NCBI GenBank assembly: GCA_000004695.1
Contig: CM000150.2
Location: 2,528,001-2,592,000 of the forward strand
Reading direction: 5' to 3'
DNA: 64,000 nucleotides
Origin: Dictyostelium discoideum
Lineage: Eukaryota
Shown: one piece after another, positions 1,046 to 11,393 of the stretch
How positions within the stretch are numbered: position 1 is the stretch's first letter
Layout of the letters: every line of letters begins with the position of its first letter
Position numbers and translations under genes: made by a program
The notes under the pieces: model-generated
What the model saw: only the letters and a program-made list of their open reading frames with translations
What the model was told of the DNA's origin: nothing
Database searches by the model: none

Positions 1046-4000
1046 ATGGTAAAATTTAAAATAGTTATATCATTTTTATTATTTATTTTATATTGTAATT
1101 GTTTCACATTTGGTAGTTACACATTTGATACAAAAAATTGGTCAACAAATGGTACACTATCATCATGTGTTTTTTATGATTTTGTAAATAACGATTATTA
1201 TGATTTAAGAGCTATTGTCATACCTGATCATCAAGGTTCCCACAGTGCAAGTTTCACAGCTGAGCTTTCTGGTGGAATTCAAACACCATATACAATATAT
1301 TTTAATCCTTGTTTTAATGATCATATGTGTCCAGGTGGTCTTTCAGTAGGTTGTACTTTTATTGTACAAAATTCACAAAGAGTTCTTAATTCTGTTGGTT
1401 TACTTTCAGAATCTCATTTTGTTACATTTAGAACAGATGGTATTACTATTAAATATCAATCAGCTCTTTTACCATCAACAACATGTGCCTCTAATGGTAA
1501 CCGTAGAACTATGATTTTAGTTATCACTTGTGATCCAAATGAACCATTTAAAGTTACAAGTACTTACAACAGAAGAGTGTTATGTGAACATACAATTTAT
1601 ATCGCTTCAAAATTAGTATGCAAAAATAGAGGAGTATTATTTAATCAAGGTCTATTTTATGATTTAACACCAATGAAATTGTAAGTTATTAAATTCTTTT
1701 TCATATTTATTTTTTTATATTTTTTTTTTTTAAAATAATTATCAAAAAATAAAAAAAAAAAAAGAACCAAACACAAAATAAAAAAACAAAAAAATCTAAT
1801 CTTTTTTCACTTTTTTTTTTTTTTTTTTAATTTTTTTATTTTTATTTTTTTTTCCCACAGATTAACAAGCACTTCACACCAAATCACCAATGATGACCAA
1901 ACAAAAGATATTCTCTTTAATTTATTCGGAAATGTAAATAGATGTGGTACTTTCGGTACATCAACATTAAGTTATCAATCATGTATTTTAACAGTTGCTA
2001 ATAAAGCGATCAATTATAAACTAGATTCAAGATATGCAACATCACCAAAATCAGTTATGGTAGGATCTCTCAGTCAACCAAGAACAATTACATTTACAAA
2101 TGATGTAATAACCATAATTTATAGTTCAACAACTGGTTTCACAGAATGCTCATCAAATGGTAACAAATATTCATCAAAGTATATTTTAATTTGTGATCCA
2201 TTCACAGAATATTATGTAGATAAATTTACATTAGAATCACAATGCATTTATCAAATTAAGGTTTATACTAAATACGCATGTCCAACATTACGTTTATTCA
2301 AAGAATCACAATATTATGACCTTTCACCATTGATGTTGTAAGTATTCAATTTAATTAAAAAACTTTTTTAATGTTTTATTCTCTTGCACTTCTAACAATT
2401 ATTAATAATAAAATAAATAATAGGGATTCAACAAGAAATTATACAACAAGTAATATTACAGACGGATATGAATATAATATTGTATTCAATATTGGTAATA
2501 AAGCACAAATGTGTAGCGATGCATTTAATGATTATTATTTTGCTTGTCAATATGATCCACGTTATAAAAGTTTTAATCCACTTGCGAAGGCAAGTTTAGG
2601 TCAAAGAGTAACATTTGATTTAGATCAAGTTAAATTCGAATATACTTCACCAACAACAACTAGTTGCCCATTAAATTCCAATAAAAGAACTTTTATTATT
2701 GTTTTAAATTGTGATGAAAACCAACATTATCAATTAGTTTCAACTTTAGAATCTCCTGCATGTGTATATACAGTAACAATTAAAACTAAATATGTATGTG
2801 AATCAACAATTTATTACAATAGAATTAATACTACCTTTTATGATATTACTCCAATAAAAACGTAAGTTTTAAATTAAATTTAATTATAAATTATAAATAA
2901 TAATAATAATAATAATAATAATAATAATAATAATAATAATAATAATAATAATAATAATAATAATAATAATAATAATAATAATAATAATAATAATAATAAT
3001 AATAATAATAATAATAATCTTTATTAACAACCAAAACTATTAATTTTAATTAGAGGGAAAGATAGTCCAAAATCTGCAGATTTTTTTCTTGGTGATATAT
3101 ATCCATATAAAGTAAGGGATAATTTTTAAAATTTTTTTTTTTTTTGTTTTTTTTTTTTGACAAACAAACGTGTGAAACTGAAATTTAAATATTTTATGTA
3201 TATATTTACTAACTTTACTTTATTAATTTTTTCTAACAGCTTTATTACGGTATAGGTAATACTGTTAATTATTGTGCATTAATCGGGTATGCTCCAGGGG
3301 TAGATTATCAAGCTTGTTCAATTATCAGCGGTAATGTTGTTACTCAAGTCGGTAGTTTAAAAAATACATCAATGTATCTAAGTAATAATGGTATAGATAT
3401 ATATCATACTACACCATTTGATTTAACCAGAGTATGCCAAAATACAAGATATCAAAGAGTGAACTTTTTAAAAATGGTATGTGATACAACAGCAATAAAC
3501 GTTGTGGTTAGCGCGACTGAGACTGCCAATGATTGGGCATGTATATATACAATCGAAATTAAAACAAAATATGCATGTCCAATTAATTATGCACCAGTAT
3601 TGCCAGCTGTTGGAAATCCATGTTTATACAGTTGTACACCACCAGGTGCTTTAAATCCAAAAGATATAGTTAGTGTACTTTTAAATTTAGGCGTTTGTTT
3701 CTCAGAGATTAATAAATATGGTACAGGTGCACAATCATTACTTGGTACATTCAACAATACTTGGGTTTTAAACCACAATGAATATGATGATTGGATGGGT
3801 GGACAACTTTATTCACTATTATTAACAGGTAAACCACAAACATCGATTTCACCATATGTTATTTCAATTACACATGATAATTTATGTACATATGGTACCA
3901 ATGGGTTAAGTAAAGCAAAAAATTCAATCAATGATTTTCTTACTATTACAAATGATCTTCTTGAAATTTCAAATCGTGCAGCCAGTTCAACCGTTACCAA

Positions 4001-10000: not shown

Positions 10001-11393
10001 TAATTGTTTAAATATCAATACTATATCTCCAAATGAAGTTCGTTGTATAGTGTTGAAATCAAGTGCAGGCACTAAACAATTAACATTAACCTATGAAAGT
10101 TATCAACCAACCTATTCACAATTCACTCACAAAAACGATGATGACAGTGATAGCCACGATGATGATGATAAAGACAATAATGGACCAAAAGATACCATAA
10201 TAAGTATTATCGGAAGTGCAATTGGAGCAGCAGTATCAGCAGCCATAAGTAGACTAATAACAAGCATTTTCATTGGTGGAACATCAGTAGCCACAGCAGC
10301 AGCAACAACAACTGCAACAGGTACCGCGATTGCAACAGCAACTACAGCGTCAACAGCAACAGCTATTGCCGGTGCAACGACCGAAGGTGTTGCAGTAGTC
10401 TTTACAAGGGTATCAGTAATAGCAGCAACTGCAGGTGGTGTTGTTATTACTGCAATTGTAACAGCAACAGTCATTCTTATTTCAGGTGGAAGTACACCAT
10501 CACCAACTCCAACTACAACTCCAACTATTTCACCAACTCCAACACCGACCGATAACTATTGGGTAAGATGTATGGTCGATTATTCAAGATTAACTTTACA
10601 AGTCGATAATCTTTACGGTCAAGATATAGTATGTATTGATGGTAATGGAATTTCATCAATTTTCAACGAATCATTCTCTTGTAAACCTGATCTTATTAAC
10701 GATGGTATGATATGTGCTCAACAACATCAAGATGGAACAAATTCAACAACCACATTTGGTAATTCAACATTAATTTGTCATATTGACTCAACAAAATCAT
10801 GTGAAATTTCACCACCATTCATCATACCATCCGATCCAATTGAAGATGATGAATATTCAAATATTTTAGAATGTCAATATAATCTCATTGAAAATTCATT
10901 ATCAACACACTCTAATAATAGTCCATTAAGATGTTATAATAATGAAACTGAAAATTACTTCACTATGAATACTACACTTTCATGCTCAAAAGATGAATCA
11001 TTAAGTCAAGATAACAATACGATTTCTTGTTTAGCAGATACAGATGATACTCAAATCTTTTTCTATAAGAACTCAATTACATGCATTACAGATTATCCAT
11101 ACTATAGATGTACAATGAAATCTCAACCATCACAAGATGATAACATAATTCCAGAACCAACATTACCACCAACTCCATCAATTGATGATGATTCCACATG
11201 TATTTATGATTCAGCCAATCCATATTCAATAGATCTCCAACCAACGATTGGAACTAATGTCAAATGTCCAACAAATGAAAAAGAACTTCATTATGATCTT
11301 TCAACTTATCTAACATGCACAGATAATACCACCCATAAAAACTCCACTTATTCGGTTTCATATTCAACTTATGTTTGCATTAAAACAAAATAA
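1046..11393 (+). CDS. Giant multi-exon gene. Order of parts: signal peptide, four tandem MRH/CIMR (mannose-6-phosphate receptor homology, P-type lectin) repeats, more than 20 IPT/TIG repeats, an acidic stretch, an Ala/Thr-rich hydrophobic segment, a Thr/Pro/Ser linker, and a Cys-rich C-terminal domain. Predicted exons: 1046-1680, 1861-2337, 2424-2861, 3054-3111, 3240-5735, 5813-6846, 6917-11393 (about 3200 aa).
   Basis: ORF-track fragments 1046-1684, 2057-2341, 2371-2865, 3372-5747, 6587-6898 and 6951-11393 join in frame. The donors used are GTAAGT at 1681, 2338, 2862 and 5736, GTAAGG at 3112 and GTATGT at 6847. Each acceptor is an AG after a T-rich tract, and phases check (2,2,2,0,0,2). I read the frame from 5813 to 6846 codon by codon with no stop. 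The four N-terminal about 160-aa repeats end in ...TCDPNEPF...LCEHTIYIASKLVC, ...ICDPFTEY...QCIYQIKVYTKYACPT, ...LNCDENQHY...ACVYTVTIKTKYVCES and ...MVCDTT...ACIYTIEIKTKYACPI. This is the CIMR/MRH signature (compare CI-MPR ...LCD...CHYLFEWRTQYACP). The downstream repeats (FSYxxPxI...TDGGxxIxIxGxNF...CxxxxWINSTxxxC...GxG) are IPT/TIG-like with many NxS/T sequons. Confidence 0.7.
2896..3018. repeat. Perfect (AAT)n microsatellite of about 41 units inside intron 3 of the giant gene.
   Basis: An uninterrupted aat aat aat... run is visible in the sequence. It lies between the GTAAGT donor at 2862 and the acceptor at 3053, so it is non-coding here. Confidence 0.9.

Follow-up and report, generated by a model that had tools for sequence, protein, structure and literature searches.

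Dictyostelium was a classical model for the phosphomannosyl modification of lysosomal enzymes, and it was never settled what reads these glycans in the amoeba. A 64,000-nucleotide stretch of Dictyostelium discoideum DNA (assembly GCA_000004695.1, contig CM000150.2, positions 2,528,001 to 2,592,000; hereafter the window, numbered from its first letter) raises the question of whether a giant gene at positions 1046-11393 encodes such a reader or a receptor with another task. The gene is predicted to encode a protein that joins four tandem domains homologous to mannose-6-phosphate receptors (MRH domains) to a long stalk of IPT/TIG repeats. Social amoebae carry lectin domains of the type found in the cation-independent receptor for mannose 6-phosphate (CI-MPR), with intact binding residues, atop a very long Ig-like stalk, a context seen in no other lineage searched. 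By its sequences, the gene belongs to an uncharacterised, fast-evolving, and lineage-restricted gene family of social amoebae.

The layout of the gene and its product is given below, where aa denotes amino acids. Bit scores refer to an external profile of 44 CI-MPR-type domains, taken from animals and choanoflagellates only and built to avoid circularity.

1046-11393, + strand: whole gene; seven exons, product of 3,204 aa (or 3,197)
1046-1680, 1861-2337, 2424-2861, 3054-3111, 3240-5735, 5813-6846, and 6917 (alternatively 6938)-11393, + strand: exons
1046-1111, + strand: signal peptide (aa 1-22) by hydropathy, sequence MVKFKIVISFLLFILYCNCFTF
1178-1633, + strand: MRH domain R1 (aa 45-196), 46.9 bits
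1634-2293, + strand: MRH domain R2 (aa 197-356, across intron 1), 54.9 bits
2294-2814, + strand: MRH domain R3 (aa 357-501, across intron 2), 69.6 bits
2815-3596, + strand: MRH domain R4 (aa 502-655, across introns 3 and 4, with a 58-nt mini-exon), 45.2 bits
3597-4196, + strand: X1, Cys-containing alpha/beta domain of about 190 aa without assignable fold
4209-5693, + strand: TIG block 1 (aa 860-1354), four firm TIG domains and one TIG-sized module with an insertion
5694-6343, + strand: X2, second copy of X (aa 1355-1545, across intron 5), 27% identical to X1
6344-10124, + strand: TIG block 2 (aa 1546-2782, across intron 6), 10 firm TIG domains and about three weak or divergent modules
10131-10487, + strand: acidic stretch (aa 2785-2802) and two hydrophobic segments (aa 2806-2833 and 2870-2903), putative membrane anchor
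10491-11390, + strand: Pro/Thr linker and 280-aa Cys-rich C-terminal domain with 16 Cys and nine N-glycosylation sequons

The initial annotation, made from the letters of the window and a list of its open reading frames (ORFs), had read this interval as one giant gene for a secreted or membrane protein, and both points were borne out. Translation starts at an ATG at 1046 and ends with a stop codon at 11391-11393, and the spliced coding sequence of 9,615 nt yields 3,204 aa with 0 internal stops. The exons were placed by three-frame inspection together with junction sequences; all six introns are GT..AG with 5' ends GTAAGT, GTAAGG, or GTATGT, and the GC content is about 25-33% in coding sequence and 11-20% in introns of this AT-rich, Dictyostelium-type region. 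The first 7,105 bases of the window matched contig JBTAPE010000039.1 of D. discoideum assembly GCA_054883475.1 with 0 mismatches, and the independent NCBI model on this identical DNA uses the same ATG for a product of 3,197 aa. The two lengths reflect the choice of an in-frame exon 7 acceptor (6917 versus 6938): three in-frame AG acceptors lie in 6847-6937, such that exon 7 may start at 6917, 6938, or 6944, and the present model takes 6917 while the orthologous models P0004 and P0153 take 6938 and drop YIRLFYS. P0004 and P0153 are tandem D. cf. discoideum proteins of 3,198 and 3,199 aa with 90-91% identity to the window protein, and because both align over residues 1-3,204 the fusion of MRH exons to TIG exons is not a splicing artefact. 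These data support the presence of MRH and TIG domains in one predicted secretory-pathway protein, with a signal peptide at aa 1-22 and a putative anchor at aa 2806-2903, whose fusion is conserved at full length in related genomes. A noncoding (AAT)41 microsatellite, reading as poly-Asn or poly-Ile in two frames, was observed within intron 3 at 2896-3018.

Domains R1-R4 are about 150 aa each, share 23-30% mutual identity and the start motif Y-D-(L/I)-(T/S)-P, and match one another in translated comparisons at E = 6e-12 to 6e-5, far beyond chance. Six Cys are invariant over the four domains and nearly invariant over 65 diverse MRH domains. The motif C-x-Y-x-I-x-V-x-T-K-Y-A-C-P, initially ascribed to every module, is literal in R2 and near in R3 and R4. 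Introns 1-3 are all in phase 2 and fall at a homologous spot right after the first beta-strand of the next module (YDLTPMK, YDLSPLM, and YDITPIK), consistent with an origin of the modules by tandem duplication. The proposal of one exon per module of about 160 aa is only approximate, with the register of exons and modules shifted by one strand and module 4 divided between the 58-nt mini-exon and the start of exon 5. The suggested likeness to the exon arrangement of CI-MPR genes is weak; in mammalian IGF2R, each repeat is divided among several exons.

The identity of the head as four tandem MRH domains, also proposed initially, was upheld by sequence profiles, by the structure of R3, and by full-length conservation in relatives. 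A profile of the four repeats matched CI-MPR chains in the PDB at E = 6e-10 (6um1), 2e-7, and 1e-6, followed by weaker matches to ERLEC1, GIIbeta, and GNPTG, and its best stretch on 6um1 was the domain that holds Q1292/R1334/E1354/Y1360. An exhaustive HMMER scan of 1.84 billion representatives retrieved 194 proteins at E<=1e-3, many of them 2,300-2,600 aa long with 10-16 matched stretches each, and the ones inspected proved to be true CI-MPRs of choanoflagellates, one spider, and scallops, for which Pfam CIMR reached values as low as E = 1e-285. The external CI-MPR profile covers the full domain length in each of R1-R4 (45-70 bits). Pfam cut-offs were passed on R3 only, by PRKCSH_1 (28 bits against a cut-off of 23) and ATG27 (27.7 bits against a cut-off of 27). 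The AlphaFold2 model of R3, the one repeat modelled, was built from the exon 3 part without its first beta-strand (encoded in exon 2) and an alignment of 65 sequences, and displayed the flattened beta-barrel of the MRH fold with a mean predicted local distance difference test (pLDDT) of 92.6 and a predicted TM-score (pTM) of 0.85. All 35 of the PDB matches that Foldseek returned for this model at E<=1e-3 were MRH-fold proteins, the top 14 being the cation-dependent receptor CD-MPR (TM-score 0.67-0.76, best 0.72-0.76), followed by CI-MPR, OS-9, Yos9, GIIbeta, and GNPTG. On this profile evidence all of R1-R4 are assigned as CIMR/MRH-type domains, with the fold taken from the R3 model. When the 848-aa N-terminus served as query in a homologue search, three incomplete D. 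discoideum models were the only matches, and the full-length proteins with 91% identity went undetected; a nine-repeat profile retrieved nothing, and absence from these searches was not used as evidence.

Binding residues were assigned by aligning bovine CI-MPR Q1292, R1334, E1354, and Y1360, whose numbers were checked by a residue count along the alignment, with the repeats and by hmmalign of all family domains. R3 holds the complete tetrad as Q413 (2548-2550), R459 (2686-2688), E480 (2749-2751), and Y486 (2767-2769), and Q/R/E/Y is found in R3 of all examined subfamily copies and orthologues from the D. discoideum complex and D. firmibasis. The corresponding positions are degenerate in R1 (T/R/N/H) and R2 (I/Y/L/Y), and both domains are without the tetrad in every family member; sugar binding would not be expected of R1. 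R4 retains three of the four residues in the window copy (S563/R609/E630/Y639) compared to Q/R/E/Y in every other examined copy in which the four positions align, the Arg being unalignable in the deleted copy P0001. The Gln loop of R4 in the window copy reads CSIISGNVVT instead of the CQY(V/L/I)xG-(L/V)VI found elsewhere, with the Gln lost and one residue inserted. At least one domain with 4/4 residues is present in each of two more distant proteins, that of D. purpureum and the paralogue P0013. Conservation of Gln/Arg/Glu/Tyr, which the initial annotation proposed to check, holds for R3, for three residues of R4, and for neither R1 nor R2. In MRH lectins, whether phospho-specific or not, the mannose ring is anchored by this tetrad, which therefore predicts mannose-type binding and not phosphate specificity. 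R3, and R4 in paralogues, may bind mannose-type N-glycan termini, with the Dictyostelium-specific methyl-phosphomannose as a possible ligand.

The stalk is shorter than the more than 20 TIG repeats initially counted. Pfam TIG (PF01833) matched 13 stretches in total, three at E = 1.5e-28 and 10 at E = 3.3e-111, and an iterated TIG self-profile resolved 14 firm domains (i-E<1e-16) and three weak ones; the available length sets a ceiling of about 18, including two TIG-sized modules with insertions. The X domains are placed at the junction of the MRH head with TIG block 1 and after the fifth TIG, and an AlphaFold2 model of X of moderate quality (pLDDT 74) gave no convincing structural relative. 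An Ala/Thr-rich low-complexity stretch with GC content up to 0.44 lies between the two hydrophobic segments, and the rise in GC gives a spurious 115-aa antisense ORF at 10127-10474. The Cys-rich C-terminal domain matched no Pfam family, and the C-terminal arrangement that includes it is kept in the distant paralogue P0013. Hydropathy of the window protein revealed no single-pass transmembrane segment followed by a short cytosolic tail, the hallmark of MPR sorting receptors, and neither fibronectin type II (fn2) nor other CI-MPR-specific Pfam domains were matched.

Proteins with four MRH domains, X, and TIG were identified in D. discoideum, D. cf. discoideum, D. firmibasis, and D. purpureum, a shorter protein with MRH and TIG is present in D. 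dimigraforme, and Polysphondylium violaceum encodes proteins in which four MRH domains stand alone. In the set of 154 MRH proteins recovered, the combination of MRH with TIG was restricted to Dictyostelium proteins and one 283-aa fragment. The family forms tandem arrays in the D. discoideum complex and is unstable there: P0001 (L001 10001-15810) is reduced to 1,321 aa by the loss of most of R1, some of R4, and numerous TIG domains, and P0002 (L002 10001-16434) is split into products of 713 and 1,032 aa. Identity between copies is 98-99% in R2, 87-88% in R3, and 75-77% in R4, the lowest of the protein, and at least 84% elsewhere. Nei-Gojobori ratios of nonsynonymous to synonymous change (dN/dS) are 0.05-0.3 in R2 and 0.39-1.65 in R3 and R4, and are well below 1 in R1, R2, X1, and the TIG region; between two intact copies R4 has 18 nonsynonymous and three synonymous differences (Nd 18, Sd 3). 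Variable positions of R3 are located, in the sequence, in the loops beside Q413 and before R459, and its C-terminal third is nearly invariant. The dS values form a mosaic that probably reflects gene conversion, and the divergence of R3 and R4 suggests either diversifying selection or relaxed constraint on the predicted binding-competent domains.

Strain AX4 carries an older paralogue on another chromosome, DDB_G0290815 (Q54FJ0) and DDB_G0290813 (Q54FJ1), about 27% identical in the MRH head and annotated as one protein of about 2,450 aa (P0013) in other strains. Near-identity to the DNase II-like partner of the window copy (described below) was found in no AX4 protein (best match 81%), and no AX4 MRH-TIG protein corresponding to the window copy surfaced, which hints that the copy number or presence of the gene varies between strains. 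Identity with a gene reported on chromosome 4 was rejected as unsupported; the contig carries the exact AX4 protein DDB_G0270642, whose AX4 record is probably chromosome 1. The suggestion that the protein may be undescribed holds in that full-text literature searches retrieved no paper on an MRH-TIG protein or a DNase II pairing in Dictyostelium, and is qualified by the automatic UniProt names of relatives, 'MRH domain-containing protein' for Q54FJ0 and 'IPT/TIG domain-containing protein' for Q54FJ1. DDB_G0290815 is mentioned in the literature only for a failed knock-out attempt (PMC7190356), and DDB_G0283243, reported from an htt-suppressor screen, is a different 'MRH domain-containing' gene.

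The premise that Dictyostelium lacks classical mannose 6-phosphate receptors is partly dated, as a putative CD-MPR-like protein has been reported from its phagosome proteomes (PMC3756923). A 359-aa D. discoideum protein encoded at L010 2325-3591 (- strand) has a signal peptide, a single MRH domain in which all four tetrad residues are apparently kept (by eye), a Pro/Thr/Gln/Ser linker, a Cys-rich stretch, and a C-terminal transmembrane segment. This CD-MPR-like layout may correspond to the 'putative CD-M6PR' of those proteomes.

Upstream of the giant gene lies a divergently oriented DNase II-like gene, 547 bp away, and similar pairs were recovered at other loci:

24-497, - strand: first exon of the DNase II-like gene ACTFIT_007952 (798 aa), with signal peptide and first HxK motif; the remainder lies before the window start
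498-1045, no strand: AT-rich intergenic region (20% GC) separating the two head-to-head genes
L001 7277-9915 and 16043-18678; L002 7352-9947 and 16818-19509; L004 6994-9353; L006 6963-9540: DNase II-like partners at paired loci (about 780-800 aa in this subfamily, with signal peptide, Pfam DNase_II match, and C-terminal extension of about 350 aa)

The partner matches Pfam DNase_II (PF03265, E = 1.6e-28) and has a C-terminal extension of about 350 aa; in P0169, HSK at residues 58 and 414 represents both HxK motifs, the first of which is missing from several paralogues. The neighbour is on this basis a member of the DNase II family with putative nuclease activity, and the intergenic region may serve as a shared promoter. 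Head-to-head pairing recurs in all four subfamily copies of the D. discoideum strain, in the distant paralogue P0013, and in D. purpureum. More distant DNase II-like genes at L010 8122-9810 (- strand) and L011 6700-9425 (- strand), of the DDB_G0267616 type and from D. dimigraforme, respectively, have decayed MRH or MRH-TIG remnants divergently upstream, and these two loci suggest that the pair decays asymmetrically, with the nuclease kept and the lectin gene lost. With such remnants counted, pairing was found at 8/10 DNase II-like loci examined; it extends over D. discoideum, D. purpureum, and D. dimigraforme and includes paralogues that share just 27% identity. An obligatory pairing was rejected: the D. 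firmibasis MRH-TIG loci have no DNase II-like gene in their 10-kb flanks and carry a DENN-like gene or gene fragments upstream instead, and the DNase II-like genes of L008 and L009 have no MRH neighbour. The association is consequently ancestral and frequent and not obligatory. The partner has one N-glycosylation sequon and its paralogues mostly 0-3, a number that would not favour a glycan-mediated link between receptor and cargo.

Three DNase II-like genes of 734, 741, and 739 aa stand in tandem at L009 (D. firmibasis CM069767.1, 665-12454). The first two are each followed by an opposite-strand gene of 230-244 aa that matched no Pfam family, and a 1,349-aa gene follows the third; at L010 a similar DNase II-like gene is followed by a 244-aa gene. 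A DNase II-like gene with a gene of 230-244 aa may constitute a second kind of conserved pair. Elsewhere in the window, tRNA-Ser(AGA) at 30667-30748 (+ strand) and tRNA-Lys(CTT) at 32505-32579 (- strand) lie downstream of the giant gene, and 23 further ORFs of at least 200 aa occupy 11.4-64 kb.

The initial annotation had left open a role in sorting or in adhesion, and the absent tail disfavours the former. The product is read here, at roughly even chances, as a recognition or adhesion lectin exposed at the cell surface or in the phagosome lumen rather than as a housekeeping lysosomal sorting receptor. This is ranked above CI-MPR-like sorting because of the topology and the tail, the great length of the stalk, and the way in which the family evolves, with tandem duplication, frequent decay, and the fastest divergence in R3 and R4. 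The four CIMR/MRH-type domains would form a membrane-distal head on a rod in which the two X domains interrupt a series of about 14-18 Ig-like IPT/TIG domains, with the hydrophobic anchor region and the Cys-rich C-terminal domain following the rod. R3, and R4 in paralogues, would bind mannose-type glycan ends, and R1 and R2 could act as non-lectin scaffold or protein-binding modules, as in most CI-MPR domains. Ligands may be glycans of other cells, of prey or microbes, or of a secreted partner. Several observations weigh against this reading. Pfam CIMR (PF00878), for which four matches at E<1e-5 had been anticipated, gave none at E<=1 with either the 848-aa N-terminus or each repeat singly, and one faint precomputed match is confined to paralogue P0003. 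The loss of the R4 Gln (S563) leaves a single domain predicted to be binding-competent in the window copy. The topology is ambiguous, with two hydrophobic segments followed by a Cys-rich domain of glycosylation type; if the membrane is crossed by the second segment alone, the last 300 aa would be cytosolic, and only in that case would EDDEYSNIL (aa 3023-3030), loosely like acidic-cluster or YxxPhi signals, look like a sorting signal. The dN/dS values derive from small counts and some copies are probably decaying, such that the data do not distinguish relaxed constraint from positive selection.

A functional analogue of CI-MPR, a luminal receptor taking (methyl)phosphomannose hydrolases and possibly the DNase II-like neighbour to lysosomes or phagosomes, is considered less likely. 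The closeness of the MRH domains to those of CI-MPR and the complete R3 tetrad are in its favour, and mammalian CI-MPR binds Dictyostelium hydrolases that carry methyl-phosphomannose. A candidate cargo is at hand in the signal-peptide-bearing neighbour with both HxK motifs, whose head-to-head pairing recurs, with remnants at two loci. Set against this are the lack of a single-pass transmembrane segment with a short signal-bearing cytosolic tail, a stalk whose approximately 17 Ig-like domains have no parallel in known sorting receptors, the sparse sequons of the partner, and the unpaired loci on both sides, while copy-number turnover and fast-diverging binding domains would be unusual in a housekeeping receptor. 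That the MRH modules are not lectins here and serve in protein binding or structure, such as CI-MPR domain 11 with IGF2, Drosophila LERP, and Trichomonas MPR-like proteins, is unlikely. The tetrad-less R1 and R2, the lost R4 Gln of the window copy, and the strongest purifying selection of the protein in R2, suggestive of a conserved sugar-independent function, are in line with it, and five-MRH MPR-like proteins without binding residues are documented (PMC8717582). Yet Q/R/E/Y is kept in R3 of all examined subfamily members despite heavily varying loops, and likewise in R4 of the other copies; a purely non-lectin role is therefore hard to reconcile with residues retained inside fast-changing domains, a pattern that selection for sugar binding predicts.

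It is very improbable that the window copy is a non-functional or decaying family member. The damaged sister copies P0001 and P0002, the Q-to-S change in R4, and the AX4 comparison, by which the copy may be dispensable or strain-variable, would fit decay, but a spliced ORF of 9.6 kb that crosses six canonical introns without meeting a stop codon would not be expected to last by chance at about 27% GC, and the 90-91% full-length identity to the intact P0004 and P0153, with dN/dS well below 1 across R1, R2, X1, and the TIG region, also speaks against it. The most far-reaching reading, that the MRH-TIG giant and its DNase II-like neighbour form an ancient two-gene module acting as a lectin-guided nuclease or receptor-effector recognition system, is rated improbable. 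The diversifying MRH head would pick a glycan target on non-kin cells, prey, DNA-trap, or matrix material, and the co-expressed secreted nuclease would be cargo or effector, in a genomic logic like that of the tgrB1/tgrC1 pairs with a lectin and an enzyme as partners. The R3 residues Q413/R459/E480/Y486 are testable candidates for glycan recognition in adhesion, kin or prey recognition, or hydrolase capture, and the DNase II-like pairing offers a second, unexpected lead. Even if adhesion should prove to be the sole task of the protein and its lectin fold merely borrowed, the gene would clearly illustrate how the MPR module has been shuffled as a domain outside animals.

Compared with known systems, the novelty lies in an architectural variant of the MRH-lectin receptor theme, whose relatives carry automatic labels and are uncharacterised in function. 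The window protein shares with CI-MPR, the best sequence match of its MRH head (E=6e-10), tandemly repeated MRH domains that are each about 150 aa long and keep their disulfide cysteines, and a tetrad in some domains only. It differs in having four MRH domains instead of 15, no fibronectin type II insert, a stalk of 14-18 TIG and two X domains without CI-MPR counterpart, no single transmembrane segment with a short sorting tail, and membership of a lineage-specific, rapidly diversifying multigene family. The about 15 contiguous MRH domains, type I topology, and signal-bearing short tail of a CI-MPR/IGF2R orthologue are thus absent. CD-MPR, OS-9/Yos9, XTP3-B, glucosidase II beta, and GNPTG share with R3 the flattened beta-barrel and the same four mannose-anchoring residues and differ in their one or two MRH domains and defined endoplasmic reticulum, Golgi, or lysosomal roles. 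TgrB1 and TgrC1 are TIG-rich Dictyostelium allorecognition membrane glycoproteins encoded by head-to-head gene pairs in tandem, fast-evolving families. The window family resembles them in these respects; an MRH head is absent from Tgr proteins, and a Tgr pair consists of two TIG proteins, whereas the partner of the window gene is a DNase II-like enzyme. Five-MRH CI-MPR-like arrays outside vertebrates are found in Drosophila LERP and Trichomonas vaginalis MPR-like proteins, in which most mannose 6-phosphate-binding residues are absent and classical sorting motifs reside in short tails (PMC8717582); the window family, in contrast, keeps one or two tetrad domains and has no such tail. AX4 DDB_G0290815/DDB_G0290813 has the same layout: it shares the four MRH domains, two X domains, TIG repeats, transmembrane region, Cys-rich C-terminus, and head-to-head DNase II-like neighbour, and is a distinct older paralogue with about 27% identity in the MRH head.

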